This document shows, piece after piece, positions 3,173 to 26,348 of a DNA stretch of 64,000 nucleotides (position 1 is its first letter; every line of letters starts with the position of its first letter). This DNA comes from a virus (lineage: Duplodnaviria > Caudoviricetes): the IMG/VR virus record IMGVR_UViG_2645727545_000002, positions 32,001 to 96,000 of that record. One strand, written 5' to 3'. The translations under genes and the position numbers were made by a program. The notes under the pieces are model-generated. The model was given only the letters and a program-made list of their open reading frames with translations, had not been told where the DNA came from and did no database searches.

Positions 3173-5773
3173 TTAATTATTTGTTTTTGTAACTGCTTTT
3201 CTTACTAAATCAACTGGTATTACCATAAACGCAAGAACTACAATAATTAACCAATGATTGAAATCTAACGGTGTTACCTTAATCAATTCACCTGCAAAAT
3301 TGCAAAGTACTACTGTAATCATAAAAATGCTAATTGCGATATATCCAAATAATTTATTTTTTCTAATTCCTTTTAATAGATTGAAACTATCTGTTCTAAT
3401 ATTAAATCCGTTAAACACTGCCATAAAACATAACAATGCGAATCTCGCAGTCATTGCCTCTACATCTGTTGAAAACATTTTAGAAATAGGACTAAGAATG
3501 ATTACTCCATATAATGCAATAAAAGATATTGTACTAACTGCAATTCGTGTTTTGGCTCCCCTTATAAATAATCCGGAACCTTTTTTAATTGGCTCTTCAT
3601 ACATGTATTCTTCTTTTGGTGGCTCTCCTCCAAAAGAAAGTGAATTCAACGAATCCATAATAATATTTACAATAAGAATCTGTACCGATGCTAGTAATGA
3701 TCCAACTGCTACAATCGGATACAACACACTCAAAATAAGTAAAGAAATGTTGATCGGTAACTGGAACTCTAAAAACATCATAATGTTGTGCATAAATGTT
3801 CTTCCTAGTTCTACCGCTTTTACAACTGAAGCAAAATTATCGTCTGTAAGCACAATGTCTGACGCTTCTTTTGCAACATCGCTTCCTGTTTGCATTCCAA
3901 ATCCAACATCAGAACGTTTTAATGCTGGCGAGTCATTTACCCCGTCTCCTGTCATCGCAACAGATCTACCAATCTCTTGAGCTAAAGTAACAAGTCTCAA
4001 TTTTGTATTCGGAGAGCATCTTGAAATTACTCTCAATGATGGGATAATTTCTTTGACATCTTCATCACTCATATTTTCGAATTCATCATTTGTGAGAGCT
4101 ACATCACCATCTTTGTAAATTCCGCATTCTTTTGCTACCGCAATTGCAGTTTCAATACAATCTCCTGTAATCTCAATAACTTGAATACCAGCTTTATGTG
4201 CAATATTCACTGCGTCTGGAACCTCGTCCCTAACAGGATCAACGACTCCAATAATACCAAGTAATGACATATCTTCCGGTAGTTTATTCTCTTCTAACTT
4301 TTCATTTTTAGAAGACAACGCAATACATCTCATAGATTTCGTTGTCATTTCTCTAAGTTTATTCTGAATCGCTTCTTTGTCCTTAGATGTAAAAGATTTT
4401 CTATTTCCTTCCTCATCAATCATAAATGAACACTTTTCAATAATTCTCTCAGGTGCTCCTTTATAATATGTAAGGTTGTCCTTTGTAGTAAACGCTGAAT
4501 ATTTATTACTACTGCTAAACACTTGCTTGTCCAACATTTGAATATTCTTATTAATATTTTTGTATTCATCTGAATTAACTAAGGACATCATGGCTCTATC
4601 GATTGAATTTCCACCAGTGATCATCCCATCTTTGTCAAATGTAGAACTGTTGTTCAAAACAATGTTGTTTTTCATTTCATTCCACAATTTTGAATTCATA
4701 TCAATTTCTTTTGTATTTGAGCCAATAATTGTCTTTGGAGTCATAACACCTGTTGTCAATGTTCCCGTCTTATCTGTACAAATAATGTCAACATATGCTA
4801 ATTCAGGAATTTTACCTGGATTCTTGGCAAGGATATTGAACTTCTCCATTGTTTTTACGTTCTGTTTGGTAACAAGTTTTACAATTAATGGAAGTCCTTC
4901 CGGAACTGCAGCAACAACAATGGTTAATGCAACTGAAAAATTCTGTGCAAATTTCTGAATTAAATTGAAAATGTCATCCGAAAAATATTTTGAAACACCA
5001 ACTTCCATAATTCCAGAAACGGTAAGAACAATAAACGTAATTGATGCTGCAATCGTTCCCCACTTAGAAATAAAGCCACTTAAATTATCTAACGCAATAT
5101 CAAGAGCTGTTTTAGGAGCCTCTAGTGTTTGCATTTTTACCAATGTATCTCCATTGACTGTATTTACACCAACATCTGTGACAATCATTTTTCCTTCGCC
5201 GGACATCACGGTTGTTCCTGCAAACAAACAATTCTGATTTGTATACGCATCTGTCGATGTTGTTTTCTTATGAATATATCCATCAATCGGCGTTTTCTTA
5301 CACTCTTTTGTTTCTCCATTAATTGCAGCATTGTTAACTGAAATTTTACCTTCCATAAGATATCCATCTGCAAAAATCTCTTGTCCCATTCCTACACAAA
5401 CAACATCTCCCACAACCAATTCATCTTTATTGATTGTTTGCAATTGACCATTTCGTATTACATCACAATGCCTAATAGATGTTTTTGCTCTTAATTCTGC
5501 TGCTGATTTTTGTACACCCAACCCTGTCTTAACCGCGATACAAGTTACAATTGCAAGAACAAAGATAATCATAAGCGGTTCAGATAATTCCATTACACCT
5601 AAAAACCCCAACACCATTTGCAACATGGCAATTGCAATTAAAATCATAGTGATTTTTTCACATAGAGCATCTTTTGCAAAATGATACCATTTTTTTAATT
5701 TCGGTTCTGGTAATTTATTAGAACCGTACTTTTCTCTGTTTTCAACAACCTGTTCATTTGTTAATCCATTCAT
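3173..5773 (-). CDS. P-type cation-translocating ATPase, type II (Ca2+-like)
   Basis: PEGLP, DKTGTLT phosphorylation site, KGAPE, TGD, GDGVND, multiple TM segments. Confidence 0.93.
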
Positions 5774-5774
5774 A

Positions 5775-6325
5775 TTACTCTCCTTTTGCTCCTTTTTCTT
5801 TATGTAAATCACCAATCTCTTTCATGGCGCGTACATACGCTTCTTTCTGAATATTAATTGCTCTTTCACGTTTTTTCTTATCTCTTTTCACTTTTCGCTT
5901 ATGAGCATGTCTCTTTTTCATTGCTTCTTCATGTTTCTCATTCTCTGCTTCAACAAGCTTTCTATCATGTTCTTTTATTGCCTTATCGACCATCTTTACA
6001 TATTTCTTTTGATAAGAAAGTTCTGTTGCCATATGCTCAATTCCTTCTAAAGTATATTTGTCTTTATACATGTTTTTGATAAAGCAACGAATAAACCTCG
6101 CCGCAAATCAAAAGTGTCCTTATCATCGCAAACAACTTTCTCCTGTGTGTTATCACTAAAATCAACTCTAATTACTTTATTTGGAAATAAAATTTCAAAA
6201 CTAGAAATTTCAATGTTATTATTATCTTCGTATACAGATGATTTAGAAATTTCTAATCCAATTCCACTGCACATCTCCTTACATAGATCATAAGCCGTCT
6301 TTACTTTATAAAAATCTTCCTTCAT
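5775..6325 (-). CDS. Hypothetical phage protein (split by frameshift)
   Basis: Overlapping ORFs 6047-6325 and 5775-6071 read as one protein. Confidence 0.5.
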
Positions 6326-6411
6326 TCTTCTATCCTTTCTATTCTATCTGTTTTATAATCTCTATAACAATATGAGTCAAAAAATAATAAAGCCTTCACA
6401 GACTTAAATAT

Positions 6412-6835
6412 TTATTCTATTACATATCCCACTAATTTGCCGCGACACCATGTTTCAATATTGTCTACATCGGTTAGACTCAGTGGTTCATCAATCAGAG
6501 CTACTTCGTATCTATGACCTTTTAAATGTTTACTTCCTACTACGATTGCTTTTTGGTTTCCGCTTTTTAAAATATTGAGGTACATATTTCGGCACATACT
6601 CTTCTATAAACCTCTTACACATATTATTTTTGACAAATACAGGAATATCATATTTCGCTGATAGTCTAGCCACTGAAACAGACTTACCAATTCCACGATC
6701 ATATTTCGTTGTATAATTCACCAAACTACCTTTTTTGTTTTTTAGCACCTGATTCAAGTGGTGTTTCAATTTCAAATATGTAGATTCATATTTTAACCGA
6801 TATGATAAATAGCTGCATAACTTATATAATTTCAT
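6412..6835 (-). CDS. Hypothetical protein with P-loop-like RGIGKS (split)
   Basis: ORFs 6530-6835 and 6412-6597; RGIGKS and ALIDE motifs. Confidence 0.45.
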
Positions 6836-7223
6836 CTTCGTTTAATTCCTCTTCTTTATTCAACTTTTTCTTCACACCAATGTTTGCTATTTTATAAAGA
6901 ATGTCATATATCCATCCAAAAATATTATCCTTTTTACTACTCAATTTGTTAGAGATATAAATTACAAAAACTATTATTGGAGCTAGATAGCCAGTTGCAA
7001 AACATACAAGTGTCCAATCTGTGTAATCAAAGAATTTTTTTAAATACTTTTTATTATATTCCGTTTTTCTTAAATAACTAAAAATTAAAAATAGCAAAGT
7101 AAGAAATCCAACCAAAAGCCATAATAAAAAGAATCTAATAACCTCTTCGAAATCATTTTTCGAGATATTACTTAATATAATCAACTCATCTTTCCCCTTT
7201 CTCTTACTGTAATATAAAACCAA
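6822..7223 (-). CDS. Hypothetical membrane protein
   Basis: Two hydrophobic segments. Confidence 0.5.
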   Translation of the reverse strand: MVLYYSKRKGKDELIILSNISKNDFEEVIRFFLLWLLVGFLTLLFLIFSYLRKTEYNKKYLKKFFDYTDWTLVCFATGYLAPIIVFVIYISNKLSSKKDNIFGWIYDILYKIANIGVKKKLNKEEELNEDEII

Positions 7224-7227
7224 GAAT

Positions 7228-7470
7228 TTATCTTACAATAATAAATGATTCTCCATTTTGGTTCATAGCACTGATACTATGTTTTCCTTTTAATAACCGC
7301 ATGATACTAGCAACTTCTTTTTCACATTCATGGCACAAATCTTTTTGCTTAGAATTAGGTGTTACATTTTGAAAAGATCCAACGGATAATTCCGGTAATA
7401 CATAATTAGGTGTATGTTCACACTCTTTACCACATAGATCACAATAATATTTTTCTTCAACTTTTTTCAT
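7228..7470 (-). CDS. Small CxxC zinc-binding protein
   Basis: YYCDLCG and LCHECE. Confidence 0.55.
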   Translation of the reverse strand: MKKVEEKYYCDLCGKECEHTPNYVLPELSVGSFQNVTPNSKQKDLCHECEKEVASIMRLLKGKHSISAMNQNGESFIIVR

Positions 7471-7473
7471 GAT

Positions 7474-7674
7474 TTAATTCTCCATTTCTTCAAGTATTCC
7501 TCTTATCTCTTTATTTTGTTCTTGTCTTAATTTTGATTTGAACATTCTTCGGTTTTTCTTTTTCATTTTAGACCATCCATTATGATTATTCGCCCAACAT
7601 GCATACTGTTTGCTAAACCACGACTGACCATATTCTGAAAACTGTCTTCGAGAGACTTCATTCGACTTCTTCAT
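7474..7674 (-). CDS. Hypothetical basic protein
   Basis: ORF with RBS GAGGTG, in operon. Confidence 0.5.
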   Translation of the reverse strand: MKKSNEVSRRQFSEYGQSWFSKQYACWANNHNGWSKMKKKNRRMFKSKLRQEQNKEIRGILEEMEN

Positions 7675-7683
7675 TTATTCACC

Positions 7684-8436
7684 TCAGATCTCAATATAAT
7701 TCCATCTTTTATTACCTTCATATTTCCATTGAATTTGTCCTTGGTAAATTCTTGTCTCGATATTCTCTACATTTTCCATACCTAGGATAAATTCTCTATA
7801 AGCATCAATATCTCTTTCTGATAAATCATGAATCGCTTTAAAAATATCTAAATTCTTACAAATATGCTCTACTGACCATTCATAATCCGTTAGAGATAAT
7901 TGTCTTTCAAACTCTTTCACATTATCATCTACTTCAGATTTTGCTTCTTCATATGTAAAATAGACTTTATCAGGACGAATTGAAACATGATCAATATGAT
8001 GCTGCCACATAGGATATTTCTTTACAATTCTATATCCTTCCTTAGTTATTTCTGCTTCAATAACTCCATGGAAAATTGTACAGTCCTTTACCAAATATCC
8101 AAAATCATATCCTTTCTTAATCATTTCTGGTTTCTTGAAATCGATAAGAAATGAAATTTCTTCGTCTGTTAAACCAGAATGTGTAATTTCAAATAACCTA
8201 GTATCATATGTCCAACCTTTTGGAAGTTTCTTGTATTTTGTTTCGCTCTCAAACTCATCAATTGGGATTCCATTTACTAATCTTCTTTCCCTTGCAGTTA
8301 AATAATCAATCACAACCGCATCAGAAAACTGCTCATCTACCATTCCATATTTTACTGTATATCTTCCATTCCCCTCACTGTGACACCAATAAACAATGTC
8401 TCCATTTTTAAATCTTTTCTCAAATCCCTGTTTCAT
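7684..8436 (-). CDS. Hypothetical phage protein
   Basis: 250-aa ORF with RBS AGGTG. Confidence 0.7.
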   Translation of the reverse strand: MKQGFEKRFKNGDIVYWCHSEGNGRYTVKYGMVDEQFSDAVVIDYLTARERRLVNGIPIDEFESETKYKKLPKGWTYDTRLFEITHSGLTDEEISFLIDFKKPEMIKKGYDFGYLVKDCTIFHGVIEAEITKEGYRIVKKYPMWQHHIDHVSIRPDKVYFTYEEAKSEVDDNVKEFERQLSLTDYEWSVEHICKNLDIFKAIHDLSERDIDAYREFILGMENVENIETRIYQGQIQWKYEGNKRWNYIEI

Positions 8437-14597: not shown

Positions 14598-14942
14598 CTA
14601 TTCTTCTTGAAATTTCAATGTTCTTCCAACAAACCGTTTTAGTCGTTCATTGATGTCTTCAGAAAAACATCTACTCTTAGATATTACATCATCATAAATA
14701 CAACATTCAGTAATTACATTTTCGTCGTCAAACTGAATGCATCCAATTGTTGATCTTGGCATACGAATCGCTATTGTATTATTGCACCAGCTTCTGCAGT
14801 CATATATGTAACATCTAAAATAATGATTAAACTTACCATAATTTTTCCTAATGTATTCATCCAGATATTCCGTAATTTCGCACCAGTATTCTACATCAAT
14901 TATATTCGGCTCTCTTTTACTTAAAACAATTACATTCATCAT
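14598..14942 (-). CDS. Hypothetical protein
   Basis: ORF with RBS. Confidence 0.55.
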   Translation of the reverse strand: MMNVIVLSKREPNIIDVEYWCEITEYLDEYIRKNYGKFNHYFRCYIYDCRSWCNNTIAIRMPRSTIGCIQFDDENVITECCIYDDVISKSRCFSEDINERLKRFVGRTLKFQEE

Positions 14943-15365
14943 TCCATTTCCTCATTTGTAAATGTAATCAAGTAATCATTTTGCATACATCTCTTGCCAC
15001 AATTACAATGTTTATCTCATTATTATCTTTGCAATACAAGATTCTGCTATCTTTTCTGCAGATCTTAGCAGTTTTATCAATAACATATCTGATCACGTCG
15101 TCAACTCTTTCCTGAGACATATCCCAATTTCCTTCAAATATGGTTCCTGCCAACAATTTTGATACAATCCATAGCAACAATAGCTCCATTCAGCCATACA
15201 CGAATGCTTGTATTGCTTTAGTAATTTATGTAATGTATTTTTTGATAAATGCTTAAACTCATAGTCACGATTAAAATCCTTTGAATACTGATCTTTTGCA
15301 TGTAAAAGTAGTTTATACCTGTCTTTTTTCTTCATTATTTCTCCTTTTGAAATCACAGTTTCATA

Positions 15366-15848
15366 TTAAAAATATAATTTTGGAATATGTTTATATTCTT
15401 TAACAACATCTGCATATCCTAAATCAGATAACAATTTTAATAGTGTATTATCCGCATATTCATGATAATTTATTGATCTACATTCTTTTAATATCTCCAC
15501 ATATTTATCAGATAACCCCTGTACAAAAGTAGACTTTTTATTTTTACTAAAATGCTCTGTTTCATAATCAAAAATCCATTCCCCAATTTCGGTAATGTCA
15601 TTGTATGAATAAAATCCTAAATAGTCTGCGGCATATTGTAAATCAGACAACTCTTCTTCTGAATGAAGAATAATTTTTTCACAATTATTATATGTATCTT
15701 CATCCATTAGATCTGTCATTTTTTCTCCGTCTTTATTGTACGCTTCAATTGTTTGAAGATGTGGATGTTTCAACTCAAATTCATGATGTTCGCATTCATA
15801 CTCATCTTCAAACTGTTTTCCATCGTCTGCAATATATACTGTTCTCAT
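15366..15848 (-). CDS. Hypothetical phage protein
   Basis: YIADDGKQFEDEYEC phage motif. Confidence 0.65.
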   Translation of the reverse strand: MRTVYIADDGKQFEDEYECEHHEFELKHPHLQTIEAYNKDGEKMTDLMDEDTYNNCEKIILHSEEELSDLQYAADYLGFYSYNDITEIGEWIFDYETEHFSKNKKSTFVQGLSDKYVEILKECRSINYHEYADNTLLKLLSDLGYADVVKEYKHIPKLYF

Positions 15849-15880
15849 ATTTAATCTACTCCATTATTTTATTTTTGTTA

Positions 15881-16636
15881 TCAACTTTTATCACTCTCGT
15901 GTTTAAAACTAAACGACGGCATCATTTGCAATTTAAACAAATTCTTTTCGTGCATCTGGTCAATTTTCTTCTTTAATTGTTTATCATCAATTAGACCTGT
16001 TCTGATATATTTATCGAGAACTTCATATGTAAATCCTAAATTATCTTCATCTGTTTTATCGCAAAGACCGTCTGATGGAATTTTCTCAATGAACTCTTTC
16101 GGAAGTCCAAGTGCATATCCGACTTCTTTAACTTCTGTAACAGTCAGATTAGACAATGGGCTGAAATCACCAACACTATCTCCCCATCTCGTACTATATC
16201 CAATCCAATCTTCAGATAAATTACATGTATTTGCAACTCTTCCATTTACAGTCTGAGACACGGCATACAATGTAGCCATTCTAACTCGCGCTGGTAGATT
16301 GATAGAAGACTGTTTGCTCCAGTGATCATTTAATTCGGGCTTCACTTCATGCTTAATATCACGCACTGCATTAAAAATATTTACTTCAATACTTTCAATT
16401 CCGAGATGACTAACAACTTTCTTCGCGACGTCAATATCCTTTTGTTCCCCGTTTGGCATAAGAACACCCAATACTCTTTCTTTTCCTAGAGCTTCAACGC
16501 AGAGTGCAGCAACAATCGTCGAATCCTTCCCTCCTGAAATACCAACAACTGCTTTACATCCACGACCATTCTCTTTAAAGAATTTTTGAATCCATTCAAT
16601 AATTGCAGTTTTAACTTCATTTGCATTAAAATTCAT
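15881..16636 (-). CDS. nadE: NH3-dependent NAD+ synthetase
   Basis: VVGISGGKDS, NLPARVRM, NLSE..GYST..GD, PSDGL, TDEDNLG. Confidence 0.92.
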   Translation of the reverse strand: MNFNANEVKTAIIEWIQKFFKENGRGCKAVVGISGGKDSTIVAALCVEALGKERVLGVLMPNGEQKDIDVAKKVVSHLGIESIEVNIFNAVRDIKHEVKPELNDHWSKQSSINLPARVRMATLYAVSQTVNGRVANTCNLSEDWIGYSTRWGDSVGDFSPLSNLTVTEVKEVGYALGLPKEFIEKIPSDGLCDKTDEDNLGFTYEVLDKYIRTGLIDDKQLKKKIDQMHEKNLFKLQMMPSFSFKHESDKS

Positions 16637-16637
16637 T

Positions 16638-17155
16638 TCAATCTCGCCTCTCTTTCCCTAATCTCCATAATTCCACATCACAGTTTGAAAAAATTTCTTC
16701 AATCATTTTATAAACATCATCCCCAATTTGCGCCACCACGACAGCATCCAATTTTATATGGCATTGCAATTTTATTTCCATAATGACCATTCTTTAGGAA
16801 TGTCAAAATCTTCAATGATTGCATGCATTTCCTTAATGCATTAATATTTGTGTACTGTTTACCATCATATCCATAATTGTTTTGGGCGAACATGTTACAT
16901 ATAAATTGTTCGCTCTGAGGAATTATAATGCTACCAGTGTCATAACCATTCCATCTGCTATTAATAGGAACAACTTGAATTTTTCCAATCATTTCTTCTG
17001 AACATACTTTTATGTACTCATTATATACATTTGGATATTTCTTCTTAATCTGAAGTGCAACTCCTGATCCCATTTTTCTTTTGACAGTTTACCTGGTGCG
17101 CGATGATTCGAGCATCTGATTGGAACAAATCTCCATTGATAATTTTTATAGGCAT
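16638..17155 (-). CDS. Macrodomain ADP-ribose-processing protein (frameshifted)
   Basis: MPIKIINGDLF..IAHQVNC, then MGSGVALQIK, IAMPYKIGCCRGGANW. Confidence 0.85.
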
Positions 17156-18638
17156 TAAAATTCACCTCCATGTAGTCTGTCTCTGATTTCTTTTAACGAT
17201 TGTTCTTTTAATAACTCTCCGTCTTTAAATACCGGAATTAACATATTCACGCGTTTTTCATAATCAGCAGCCTGTTCCCATGTAAGCTCGTCCTCATAAT
17301 AAATGCTTCCATCGCATCGGTATATACTCTACAACATCCTTTCTGGGATTTCTTAAATCCTCCATCTTTTGGATTTTTAAAAATTGGGAATGGCTTGCCG
17401 TCAATTTCACAATATGTTGCTTTAATACATGAACTGAAAGTATCTCTTGTAAATGGTTTTAAAAATCCATCTTCTTCGATGCACTGAAATGAAAACGATC
17501 CAACGCCTAACGCCACATTTGAACATGCAAATCCGTTTTCCATGAGAATTTTGTAAATTTCTTCACATCTTTGTACTGTAATTGAATCACCATAAATTGC
17601 TTTTACATGTGGATCAAGCACTTTATACCCCTTGCTATTAACTGTTCCGCCGAATTCTTCCCATAATTTAAATACAGTTTTTGTTACAACTTCTACACAA
17701 TCTCCAGAATCTCCGCGCATTAACATGCATCCGTTATGATTCATAATTTCTGTTTTTAACTGAGGAAGAATATTATCGATGATATTCCAATAATCATAAG
17801 AGTCAAGAACTGCTGAAAAACTTGTGTTTGGATAGATTTCGGTAAGTAATCTTCTTAATAATGTAATCTCATCTCCATCGACTGCATAATTACTACACAT
17901 TACGGAATGCTCTGTACTAGGACTCCCATATGCAACAGATTCTTTTGTACAATCACAAAAATAATTCTTCTCAAGATAAGGAATAGTTGGAACGGTTGCC
18001 GTATTTAAAAATGATAAGCACCACCCAGCTCCTGCTTTTACCGCTGATTCTAAACACTCTTCTCCCCGGAAGTCAAATGCACCAAGGGCTTTTGATCTTG
18101 GAATATTATCTTCACAAGTTAAATCATAATAGTGATTAACAATTCCACGGTATGTCATTCCTACTGTTGCTGCCAACATTGGATGCCACATTTCTGCTGA
18201 GATAAGACTTTCTAAACTCTGAGGCAACCATGCAAAATCTTTATGTGTATTTGTAATACCAAACATAGGCACATGCATTGGAACAATTGTACCTTCTGGC
18301 AATGCAACAATCTCAATTGGCAAATATCCCAATTTATGTAGACTCTCAATCTTGTCAATTTTATACGCATCTTTCCCAAGTGATGCATCCATAATTCTTT
18401 TATATTCATAAATAATTTCTTCAAAAGGCTTATCAAAGAACTCTTCATTGAAATAATCAATCAGATACGTTTTAATAAACCCCTGTAATCCAAACATTAC
18501 TACTTTATCCCATCGTTTTACACGACTCATTCTAGGAGTAAAATAGGAAACTGATTTTGTAATATTTTTAGGCAGCATTTCTGCATGAACCGCTTTATAA
18601 AAGTCAATTAATAACATTGGACTTGTCTTATTCGTCAT
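17155..18638 (-). CDS. NAMPT/NAPRT-family phosphoribosyltransferase (Namat-like); C-terminal frameshift
   Basis: IDFYK, FDFRG, STEHS (phospho-His), VLDSYD, RGDSGD, IYGDS, KKSQKG; other frame gives VFKDGELLKEQSL. Confidence 0.9.
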
Positions 18639-19443
18639 ATTCAAATACCTCTACTTTCTCATGTTCTTTTGTAAAAATACTATTTGTCGTGAACACTCTG
18701 TCTATCAATCCACTACTCAATACTTCTCCTTCGAGAATTGTATTTTCACAATGAGATACATATAGATAAATTTCTTTTGCACCAAGTTCTTTTAGCTTCT
18801 TTGAACTATGATAGAATGTACCACCACGACTTGAAATATCGTCTACAATTAAAATCTTTCTGTCTTTTATTAATTCTGTCATACCTGAAACATCTAACCC
18901 TTTAATTTCTCCTGTTTCCCAGTCACGCTTTTTAATGCCAAAAACATATGGAAGATCAAACATTGTAGAATAACGTTTCATAGCTCCTTCATCCGGAAAG
19001 AACATTGTAAGATTATTTGTGCCACCGATGTATTTGCTTTCGATTGCTTCCCACACATACTTGTCCGGATGCTTAATTACGATTTTATCAATAAGAGCTT
19101 CGCTTACAGATGAATGTGGATCTAATACTGTTACAGAATCAAAATTCAGCCAATTAATAACTTCTGCAAAATACTTTAATGTAAATACATCTTCTGTTGT
19201 TTTAACACGATCTTGACGACTGTTTGGAATATATGGCATATTCAAGTACAAATTTGTAATACCGTGAGAATTAAGATGTTTGACAATATAAATCAATGTC
19301 ACCAATTCTTCATTATCCTCAAACAACCAGGTAATAGTTGCTTCTCTGTAATTTTTAAAATCATAAGGAACATCCTCTTTGAGCAAGAGAGTTCCATCTG
19401 GAAACTTCTTTACATTTAATACCTCTCCATTAATTTTTATCAT
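18628..19443 (-). CDS. Ribose-phosphate pyrophosphokinase-like protein (Prs/Adps-like)
   Basis: FPDG, MPYIPNSRQDR, LDPHS, FPDEGA, IVDDISSRGGTF. Confidence 0.9.
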   Translation of the reverse strand: MIKINGEVLNVKKFPDGTLLLKEDVPYDFKNYREATITWLFEDNEELVTLIYIVKHLNSHGITNLYLNMPYIPNSRQDRVKTTEDVFTLKYFAEVINWLNFDSVTVLDPHSSVSEALIDKIVIKHPDKYVWEAIESKYIGGTNNLTMFFPDEGAMKRYSTMFDLPYVFGIKKRDWETGEIKGLDVSGMTELIKDRKILIVDDISSRGGTFYHSSKKLKELGAKEIYLYVSHCENTILEGEVLSSGLIDRVFTTNSIFTKEHEKVEVFEYDE

Positions 19444-19974
19444 AAGAATTTTCTCCAATCACATTAATCTGGCAAGATTTCATTACTTCTAATGCAGCTC
19501 TATGCTTTTCAGGAGCGACACCAGCACAGCACGACGCATCAACTGTAATTTCCATTTCTGGCACCCATGCTTTAATTAACAGAGCATTCGACACTACACA
19601 AATATCAGTACATACACCAACAAGTTCAACGCTATCATAATCATTACTAGAAAAACCACCCTGGATACATTCTGCAAGGTAATTACTTCCAAATCTATCT
19701 TTATTAATTACGTGTTTTGCGTAAGATTTTAATTCATCTACAATTTCCCATCCATTTGTTCCAATAATACAATGCTCTACAGGCAATTTTTTACCTTCCT
19801 GTGTATCTAAATAATCGTCCCAATGTGTATCTTTTGTAAAGAAAACTGCGTCCCCATTTTTTAAATATTCCTCAACTTTACATTTCACATTCGGAACAAT
19901 CTCCAGGGCTTCTTTTGTTCCGAGACTTCCTGTAACAAAATCATTTTGCATATCTACTACAACTAAAACTTCAT
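19430..19974 (-). CDS. pncA: Nicotinamidase/isochorismatase-family cysteine hydrolase
   Basis: VVVDMQNDF (start shifted), KDTH, PVEHC, K..FGS, GVCTDICV. Confidence 0.8.
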
Positions 19975-19979
19975 ATACA

Positions 19980-20261
19980 CTATTCTCCTTCTATTAATTC
20001 TAAACACTCTTTCAGAAAATTTCTCACTCTATCATGTCCATTTTCGCAATATATACCTGTATAACATACCGGCTTATTCCAGAACGCCATCCATGCTCTT
20101 TTAAATCTTCCAATAACTCCTTTAAAATCTCCACCACAATATGAATCCTCAAAAGAGATTTCAAAATCAGTTGAATTTTTCATTGTATACTTAGAAAATA
20201 CAACTGATTCTGCATTATCGTCACATCTAATTGTGACTGTTTTTACATTGTCTTTCTTCAT
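19980..20261 (-). CDS. Hypothetical protein
   Basis: ORF in operon. Confidence 0.55.
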   Translation of the reverse strand: MKKDNVKTVTIRCDDNAESVVFSKYTMKNSTDFEISFEDSYCGGDFKGVIGRFKRAWMAFWNKPVCYTGIYCENGHDRVRNFLKECLELIEGE

Positions 20262-20484
20262 ATATTAGTTCTCTCTTTCTACGTTTGAAATTCTGCTTTC
20301 ATTATTTAACTAAGTTATCAATATTTACAGAAAATCCATCAAACTTTCCTGTTAATAAATATTTCTTTGTATCAAAAACATTATTTTCTTTTCTGATAGC
20401 CCCATAGAAACACCATTATCTATCAATGATTTTCTCAATAAATCCAGAACAATTTGCAACTGCTCTTTTGTATCTTCTGACATG

Positions 20485-20940
20485 TTATTCCTTTCTCATA
20501 GGTTCTGGTAGTGGCTGCCATGCTACAACCTTTTCATACCCCAATTCATCATTTGTTTTAAACACCGTATCAACGAATCCTAAACTTGTCGAATCGTAAA
20601 TATCATGCCAAAATCCAAATCCATATTCACTATCATACTGGCAGAACATCGGCAAATCCTCTTCGTGATTTTCGACAATACACATATAGAATCTCATATC
20701 ATCATCTTCCGGCAATTTCTCGCTTACCGGAATCCAACCGTCATTTTTCTTCCCATCTTCATATCCTTGCATATAAAATTTTCTTCGGCTGCATTCTCTG
20801 CACTTCGGAACATCGCCCATATGAGAACGGATAATGTCTTTTGCCCAACCAACACTTACATAATCATCACACATTCCGAATGATTTAAACTCTATCGCAT
20901 GATCTTCAATCTCTTCCAAGATCTTCTCTAGTACGTTCAT
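20485..20940 (-). CDS. DUF551-domain protein
   Basis: GWIPVSEKLP...VVAWQPLPEP. Confidence 0.75.
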   Translation of the reverse strand: MNVLEKILEEIEDHAIEFKSFGMCDDYVSVGWAKDIIRSHMGDVPKCRECSRRKFYMQGYEDGKKNDGWIPVSEKLPEDDDMRFYMCIVENHEEDLPMFCQYDSEYGFGFWHDIYDSTSLGFVDTVFKTNDELGYEKVVAWQPLPEPMRKE

Positions 20941-23817: not shown

Positions 23818-23889
23818 TGGATCATTCGGGACTTGAACCCGAACCGATCGGTTATGAGCCGATTGCGCTCACCATTGCGCCAATGATCC
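23818..23889 (-). tRNA. tRNA with CAT anticodon (elongator Met or Ile2)
   Basis: GGATCAT/ATGATCC acceptor, GCGC D stem, ATCGG-CTCATAA-CCGAT, TCGGG-TTCAAGT-CCCGA; G1:C72 so not initiator; CCA not encoded. Confidence 0.92.
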
Positions 23890-25308: not shown

Positions 25309-26348
25309 TTAACTTGATAATATCTCATCTATCATCTTATCCATCTCATATGTAAATTTGACACAATTACCATGTGAAATATGATTCTTCCAAGATTCAT
25401 AAGATTCTAGGAATTTTCCTTTTGATAACTTATTCTCTTTTACCATCTTTGCCATTTTTCGATATTTTCTTTTTCGCTTTTTCTCTTTTTTTCATTTGTA
25501 AGTTTTCTAATTACTTTTCCATCTTTTGTGACATATGTATGAAAACCACAAAATTTAATTCCGTTTTTAAAAGGTATAATCTGAGTTTTGCCGTTCAATT
25601 CAAGATTTAGTGTGTTTACAAAATCTTCTATTGCACACAAACAATATTTTGCATATTGCTTTGATTCCACAATTAAATAGAAATCATCCATGTATCTTCC
25701 ATAATATTTGACACCCAACTCTCCAGTTATAAAATGATCAAAACCAGACAAATATAATAAAGCAAATACCTGACTAACTTGATTTCCAAGAGGCAAGCCA
25801 TTTCCGCTTGTGCTATCAATAAATTTTTCACATAACCAGTACGTATCTGGATTAGATATAAAATATAAAACAATATCTTTCAGAATATTATGATCAATAT
25901 TATAGAAAAATTTTTTAATATCACCTTTAATAATCCAACAATCATATCCGTATTTCTGATATGCTAAATACATTTGATATTTCAGACAATCCAAACCAAA
26001 CAATGTTCCTTTTCCTATTTGTCCGGCATAATTCGTATATATAAATTCATTACTTAAAATAGGAAGAAGCACATTATCACATAAACTGTGCTGCACAATT
26101 TTGTCTTTAAAACTTCCTGCTTCTATAATTCTCTCTTTCGGTTCATATACTTTAAATCTGTTATATCTATCTACTTCATATTGCTTTGATTCTAAAAGTT
26201 TCTTAATTTGATAAATTCCATCAAGAGCAGATAATTCAAATTTAATTCTACTTTTCGTAAAACCTTTGCCACTTTTTGAATCTCTGTATGCTTTATATAA
26301 ATTTTCAAAATCAATAATCTTATCAAAAACTGTGCTATCTTTTATCAT
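25309..26348 (-). CDS. DGR reverse transcriptase (A-run shift near 25480; true stop at 25309)
   Basis: KERII, DKIVQH, GKGT, GDIKKFF, GLPLGNQVSQ, RYMDDF, FCGF; alternative frame adds SYESWKNHISHGN typical of DGR RT C-termini. Confidence 0.95.

Follow-up and report, generated by a model that had tools for sequence, protein, structure and literature searches.

The phage counter-defense system NARP1, which makes NAD+ directly from nicotinamide and ADP-ribose pyrophosphate, consists of two enzymes, Adps and Namat, and is known from phages SPbetaL1, Bas63 and ICP1 as well as from Paenibacillus foliorum (bioRxiv 10.1101/2024.02.11.579819; PMC12774641; PMC13586617). An extended form, NARP1-AP, combines Adps and Namat with the macro phosphatase Adpp, as in Vibrio phage Gary, and is found in about 15% of NARP1 phages (bioRxiv 10.64898/2026.01.28.702374). 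Here, we describe a five-gene cluster from a large gut phage represented by a 136-kb IMG/VR record (IMGVR_UViG_2645727545_000002; estimated completeness 81%), bases 32001-96000 of which form the 64,000-nucleotide window that we analyzed. In this cluster, an Adps-like Prs homologue and a Namat-like transferase are accompanied by genes for a nicotinamidase (pncA), a macro domain protein and an NAD+ synthetase (nadE), and we consider it reasonably likely that together they form a nicotinate-type variant of NARP1 that reconstitutes NAD+.

As in NARP1, the Adps-like and Namat-like genes are adjacent, and the transferase shares the fold and the clade of Namat. Unlike in NARP1, Asp215 of the transferase is replaced by Ala, Ala242 is replaced by Ser, four further pocket-lining positions are changed, and a nine-residue hairpin interrupts the clamp motif in the clade of the window sequence. 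Moreover, the pair is flanked by pncA and nadE, and its predicted product is nicotinic acid adenine dinucleotide (NaAD) rather than NAD+. The likeness to NARP1-AP lies in a Poa1p-like macro gene within the operon and rests on matches to yeast Poa1p (6lfq) and to phrog_335; here, this gene instead accompanies a nicotinate-type transferase and is frameshifted in the record. NARP2 (Nampt with NMNAT/Nudix, of the Vibrio phage KVP40 type) and NARP3 (PnuC with NadR; PMC13464706) are likewise phage-encoded means of restoring NAD+, and NARP2 employs a homologous type II phosphoribosyltransferase. In contrast to both, our cluster has no adenylyltransferase, transporter or kinase, and its transferase falls outside the NARP2 Nampt branch (support 100/100); NARP3 was rejected as an identity for the cluster, PnuC and NadR being unrelated to it.

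In bacteria, the repressor NrtR, whose likeliest effector is ADP-ribose, controls pncA-pncB-nadD-nadE in Clostridium acetobutylicum and prs-nadV operons in Shewanella and Acinetobacter (PMC2330246). The cluster resembles the former in that PncA comes first and NadE last and in that its clostridial copies lie beside NrtR, and the latter in pairing a Prs paralogue with a NadV-family gene. It departs from the C. acetobutylicum operon in that Adps-like and Namat-like genes replace PncB and NadD, and phage copies lack NrtR. In the papers searched, NARP1 was not found linked to nicotinamidase, PncA, NadE or NaAD, the one paper that names "nicotinic acid" doing so only as general background, and we found no description of a reaction of nicotinate with ADP-ribose pyrophosphate (ADPR-PP) that yields NaAD. 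NAMPT, pncA and nadE were listed in a survey of jumbo phages from the gut, which assigned them to conventional pathways.

A predicted NadD-independent route to NAD+

In the proposed route, PncA would deamidate NADase-released nicotinamide to nicotinate, and the Adps-like enzyme would pyrophosphorylate ADP-ribose to ADPR-PP. The transferase, with its remodeled pocket (Asp to Ala, Ala to Ser), would then combine nicotinate and ADPR-PP into NaAD, involving neither nicotinic acid mononucleotide (NaMN) nor NadD, and NadE would amidate NaAD to NAD+. The macro protein, where present, would convert ADP-ribose-1''-phosphate to ADP-ribose and thereby feed the route.

The five genes run head to tail on the minus strand (positions 15881-19974, in the order pncA, Adps-like, Namat-like, macro, nadE; Table 1), with neighbors overlapping or spaced by 1-2 bases. 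The tight packing and the positions given in a preliminary description of this DNA are confirmed, and the Adps-like and transferase genes overlap at 18628-18644, the adjacency by which NARP1 gene pairs are recognized and which recurs in nearly all relatives with full flanks. The same description reported no NMNAT or NadD in the window, an observation that extends to the whole record: the CTP_transf_like domain (PF01467; NadD, NadR and NMNAT) was found nowhere in its 136 kb by a search that was positive in 14 of 14 control genomes, nor was it found in two of three complete relatives. One complete relative carries, about 70 kb from its NAD module, a cytidylyltransferase-like open reading frame (ORF; L081:1501-1917, in the record of L013) that matches NMN (nicotinamide mononucleotide) adenylyltransferase models weakly (44 bits versus a cut-off of 181). 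Such an ORF is missing from two other complete relatives, and an adenylyltransferase is not part of the conserved module. The sole phosphoribosyltransferase here is of the Nampt/Namat type; the pairing of a PncB-type nicotinate phosphoribosyltransferase with NadD that marks Preiss-Handler salvage was not found. Megablast of the cluster against isolated phages returned no match, and promoter and terminator scans gave results at chance level, which are thus uninformative on operon structure.

The Adps-like protein shares 43% identity with SPbetaL1 Adps (E 1e-57), an enzyme that has been assayed, whereas no solved phosphoribosyl pyrophosphate (PRPP) synthetase (PRPS) matches it with more than 58 bits, a contrast that upholds the earlier identification of the Prs-like gene as Adps. 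Its PP-loop, DDISSRGGT, is of the SPbetaL1 type, DDLSSFGGT. Residues F18, R87, H121, D161, K185, D212 and D213 of ICP1 Adps, mapped with an ICP1-like sequence as reference, are kept, although they are also conserved in true PRPS and therefore do not discriminate between the two. We predict that the protein, an Adps orthologue, converts ADP-ribose and ATP to ADPR-PP. This kinship, with only a distant relationship to PRPS, speaks against the best-placed alternative, ordinary Preiss-Handler-type salvage, in which the Prs-like enzyme would make PRPP, the transferase would make NaMN, host NadD would adenylate it and phage NadE would finish the route.

The transferase is a Namat homologue with a remodeled base pocket

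Against Namat (9w5w) the transferase scores 384 bits, versus about 141 bits against human NAMPT, and its AlphaFold model (predicted local distance difference test score, 92.9) best matches the Namat crystal structures 9w5x/9w5w (template modeling score, 0.92-0.94). In a phylogeny with two NARP2-type Nampts adjoining NMNAT genes as the outgroup, it lies within the Namat clade, across a 100/100 branch from NARP2-type Nampt.

In SPbetaL1 Namat, Asp215 hydrogen-bonds nicotinamide, and NAD+ output is 8-fold lower in the D215A variant; the equivalent Asp219 of human NAMPT is credited in a review with defining substrate specificity. A by-eye reading had suggested that the GTDT motif is NTAT here, with the Asp lost, and both the translation and an alignment to SPbetaL1 Namat (PDB 9w5w/9w5x) agree. 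The equivalent of Asp215 is Ala214 (codon 17997-17999), and that of Ala242 is Ser241 (codon 17916-17918). Position 215 is Ser in the jumbo-phage lineage, and position 242 is Ser in 22 of 22 clade representatives.

Transferases with Ala or Ser at 215 and Ser at 242 (Ala/Ser type) are separated perfectly from those with Asp215 and Ala242 (Asp type) by six of 491 aligned positions (187, 213, 215, 239, 242 and 304) that are also at least 99% conserved within the Asp type. All six lie within 3 residues of published nicotinamide contacts. With about 40 of the 491 positions that near to a contact, the chance of six out of six is estimated at about 2e-7, a figure that should be read as less extreme because the six cluster in four segments. 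Meanwhile, most of the contacts to ribose phosphate and adenine are kept in the Ala/Ser type; the adenine/AMP contacts D361, T398, R399 and D400 and the aromatic residue at 392 (F392) are conserved in both types, and position 40 (R40) is Arg in most sequences of each. Changes in the nicotinamide pocket together with retained donor contacts are the pattern expected for a switch of base in which the donor is kept.

The adenine clamp is less uniform. The Namat motif GSxxxxxxTRD is interrupted in the window transferase, where the segment reads GSFSFQC-IEEDGFLKP-F-TRD: the aromatic residue at position 3 is kept, position 7 is Cys, nine residues are inserted and Tyr396 is lost. The insertion, modeled as a confident beta-hairpin, occurs in the window clade and not in that of the gut phage Phass-1, whose lineage retains a near-intact clamp (GAYTYQYVTRD, with Ala replacing the motif Ser) and has the same Ala/Ser pocket. 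Salvage through PRPP and NaMN would accommodate the interrupted clamp of the window clade, the NCBIfam name of the transferase family ("nicotinate phosphoribosyltransferase"), the ability of Namat to accept PRPP in vitro, the crystals of human NAMPT with nicotinic acid plus PRPP and with NaMN (6ta0, 6ta2) and the presence of NadD in every host, but it sits poorly with a transferase inside the Namat clade and apart from NARP2 Nampt, with conservation of the adenine/AMP contacts and with the combination, in the Phass-1 lineage, of a Namat clamp and an Ala/Ser pocket. On balance, we regard it as unlikely.

Pocket type co-occurs with pncA and nadE

Transferase loci were collected from viral contigs with four queries (the window transferase, canonical Namat, the Phass-1 transferase and a jumbo-phage transferase), and additional loci came from species-representative genomes; all counts refer to unique transferase sequences with full 7-kb flanks. 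Loss of the Asp was found to go together with pncA and nadE, an association that had been suggested as a check. pncA, nadE and adps adjoin the transferase at 99 of the 103 Ala/Ser loci, whereas neither pncA nor nadE occurs at any of the 58 Asp215/Ala242 loci, 57 of which have adps. The control loci were fetched with the pattern ATEHSVM, which includes Ala242, and this sample is therefore unable to reveal Ser242 with Asp215. The four Ala/Ser loci that seemingly lack nadE are all accounted for: one has a glutamine-type nadE that the initial search overlooked (L293), two are bacterial genomes with a glutamine-type nadE elsewhere (L300 and L302), and one is a phage record that is 54% complete (L051).

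The Ala/Ser type occupies one side of a single branch (SH-like approximate likelihood ratio test, 99), pointing to one ancient event, preserved in very different phages and in bacteria, and not to repeated convergence. Within it, the four genes have been retained together, despite rearranged order, in three deep lineages, namely the window clade, Phass-1 (a recoded, code-15 gut phage with a transferase 31% identical) and jumbo phages of 194-412 kb. The published genome of Phass-1 (L082, OQ749652.1) carries the same five genes at 3486-7924, annotated as nicotinamidase, ribose-phosphate pyrophosphokinase and nicotinamide phosphoribosyltransferase, with the macro and NadE homologues given as hypothetical; the pathway evidently went unrecognized there.

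These counts bear on a second alternative, in which the transferase would, as in canonical NARP1, still act on nicotinamide or else on both bases, while PncA and NadE would be separate helpers that boost host deamidated salvage or remove nicotinamide. Adps and the transferase by themselves would indeed complete NARP1, and the SPbetaL1 D215A variant was impaired and not inactive; however, none of the 103 loci with pncA retains the Asp, and five more pocket-lining positions change alongside it. With a nicotinamidase in its own operon, such a transferase would, moreover, be deprived of its substrate, and NadE would be left without a phage-made substrate. We therefore consider this arrangement improbable.

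PncA, NadE and the macro protein

Aligned to Pyrococcus horikoshii PncA (1ilw), the PncA of the cluster retains both catalytic residues, Asp and Cys, as well as the Asp/His/His metal site typical of nicotinamidases; 124 of 143 unique homologues show these motifs. NadE is of the short NH3-dependent type and scores 180 bits against the equivalog model TIGR00552, above the cut-off. Among solved structures, P. horikoshii NadE (2e18) comes closest to it, with 138 bits, and an SGGxDS loop is shared by 136 of the 137 unique homologues. Among isolated-phage records, nadE is rare (51 of 50,697).

In Francisella, a NadE-type enzyme amidates NaMN to NMN. That the NadE homologue of the cluster does likewise, with an adenylyltransferase encoded elsewhere completing NAD+, is very improbable: 3fiu, which we take to be the Francisella enzyme, is its second-best solved relative, and one complete relative has the weak NMNAT-like ORF far from the cluster, but the best matches of NadE are ordinary NH3-dependent NAD+ synthetases, TIGR00552 is passed, no adenylyltransferase is conserved with the module, and the bacterial copies encode a standard glutamine-dependent NadE.

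The macro gene sits between the transferase gene and nadE. Its product matches the macro domains 5m3i and 5m31 and yeast Poa1p (6lfq, E 2e-6) in the PDB, and from these similarities is a probable Adpp-type ADP-ribose-1''-phosphate phosphatase. Among relatives, the gene is optional: whether the transferase is of the Asp or the Ala/Ser type, a minority of loci have it. The preliminary description assigned the macro domain to freeing ADP-ribose; a Poa1p-like gene in the operon fits this, but the role is not new, having been published as that of Adpp in NARP1-AP.

Chromosomal copies in gut Clostridia

Clostridia of the gut and rumen, chiefly Lachnospiraceae and Ruminococcus, have relatives with 69-86% identity in their genomes. 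The copy in Pseudoruminococcus massiliensis has chromosomal flanks and runs from pncA through adps and the transferase gene to a 648-amino acid (aa) glutamine-dependent NadE, followed by NrtR. In isolate 0.1xD8-71, phosphofructokinase and NrtR border the operon; DNA polymerase III alpha is encoded upstream and a SpoU methylase downstream. Clostridial isolate operons that end in an NrtR (Nudix plus winged-helix) gene are located at L297:5623-11315 and L270:5630-10222. Overall, 61 of the 80 genome loci contain NrtR, whereas no viral locus does. Because the operon is chromosomal and lies beside the ADP-ribose-sensing NrtR in gut Clostridia, its native role is probably the recycling of NAD+ breakdown products.

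Frameshifts and surroundings of the cluster

Over the same 4.4 kb, the contig L003 has five intact genes and shows no substitutions relative to the record, from which it differs by four one-base homopolymer indels, at window positions 19970, 17319, 17073 and 16721. A missing A at about 19970 shifts the pncA frame after codon 2, and the gene start reads ATGAAAGTT (MKVLVVVDMQNDF) in L003 and ATGAAGTT in the window; as recorded, pncA seemingly begins at an internal Met and lacks the catalytic Asp. The indel at about 17319 affects the last 50 or so codons of the transferase, and an extra A (about 17073) and an extra G (about 16721) divide the macro gene into three pieces. Since the indels all fall in homopolymer runs and are unaccompanied by substitutions, they are probably sequencing errors in the record, and the L003 reading was therefore taken for protein work. 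On the same comparison, the idea that the macro gene is a true pseudogene was dropped.

Across window positions 14709-20700, the record and L003 differ by one substitution and seven one-base homopolymer indels. Further homopolymer indels relative to L003 lie beyond this stretch (22511, 11821 and 9159), and false frameshifts may affect other window genes as well, in keeping with the shortage of long ORFs. The palindrome TGAAA-N6-TTTCA, present in 7 copies in the window versus 0.54 expected, brackets the NAD module together with two small ORFs (Table 1). This bracketing, and the location of the block within the stretch that is near-identical to L003, with flanks of 93-98% identity, suggests that the block is exchanged as a cassette. 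Elsewhere, the window contains a single tRNA-Met gene and a reverse transcriptase ORF that is probably part of a diversity-generating retroelement.

Table 1. Features of the window, with positions counted from its first base
Feature	Position	Strand	Match	Length
pncA, nicotinamidase	19430..19974	-	Pfam Isochorismatase, E 2e-23	181 aa if intact
Adps-like Prs homologue	18628..19443	-	phrog_619, E 1e-69	271 aa
NAMPT/Namat-like transferase	17155..18638	-	phrog_448, E 8e-147	494 aa if intact
Macro domain gene	16638..17155	-	phrog_335 "phosphatase", E 4e-20	171 aa if intact
nadE, single-domain NH3-dependent NAD+ synthetase	15881..16636	-	Pfam NAD_synthase, E 4e-54	251 aa
Small unknown ORF inside palindrome bracket	15366-15848			
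Small unknown ORF inside palindrome bracket	19980-20261			
Bracketing palindrome TGAAA-N6-TTTCA	15348-15363			
Bracketing palindrome TGAAA-N6-TTTCA	20286-20301			
tRNA-Met gene (anticodon CAT)	23818-23889	-		
Phage reverse transcriptase ORF	25440-26348		phrog_1423, E 4e-101	302 aa

Discussion

Gene identities, clade membership, pocket changes and gene linkage are directly observed for this cluster. From them, and with slightly less assurance than for the nicotinate-type reading itself, we lean toward a fuller account in which the Ala/Ser Namat homologue would convert nicotinate and ADPR-PP to deamido-NAD and pyrophosphate. With PncA, Adps and NadE as partners, this enzyme would bypass the Preiss-Handler pathway independently of NadD and return both halves of cleaved NAD+ to use. 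Such a module would be an ADP-ribose-induced, NrtR-controlled housekeeping operon of gut Clostridia that several unrelated groups of large gut phages carry, without the regulator, against NAD+-depleting defense. The preliminary description had envisaged a distinct anti-defense route. A nicotinate-type NARP1 is indeed the best-supported reading, but, given the NrtR-linked clostridial operon, the route is not purely a phage invention.

Several considerations weigh against this interpretation. The enzymes of the variant are known from sequence and model only, so the substrates of the Adps-like, transferase and NadE steps, like the counter-defense role in phage, are predictions. The residues checked in the Adps-like protein are common to true PRPS and provide no discrimination, and Namat itself uses PRPP in vitro. 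Use of ADPR-PP is less secure in the window clade than in the Phass-1 clade because the hairpin interrupts the clamp motif and Tyr396 is lost. The co-occurrence of pocket type with pncA and nadE counts as one evolutionary event only, and the Asp-type loci with which it is contrasted were retrieved by a pattern containing Ala242. Finally, three of the five genes are frameshifted in the record; if the frameshifts were real, the module would be dead here.

If the reading is correct, the Nampt/Namat fold would gain a new enzyme activity, and the deamidated branch would be shown to allow NAD+ to be rebuilt from ADP-ribose in the absence of NadD. Thousands of "NAMPT" annotations could be sorted by substrate from a signature of two residues (Asp215 to Ala/Ser, Ala242 to Ser), and the recurrence in gut phages of pncA and nadE, otherwise rare in phages, would be accounted for. 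The finding would also connect phage counter-defense with an operon that abundant gut Clostridia carry on the chromosome, next to an ADP-ribose-sensing regulator, with relevance to how niacin and NAD+ metabolism in the gut are modeled.

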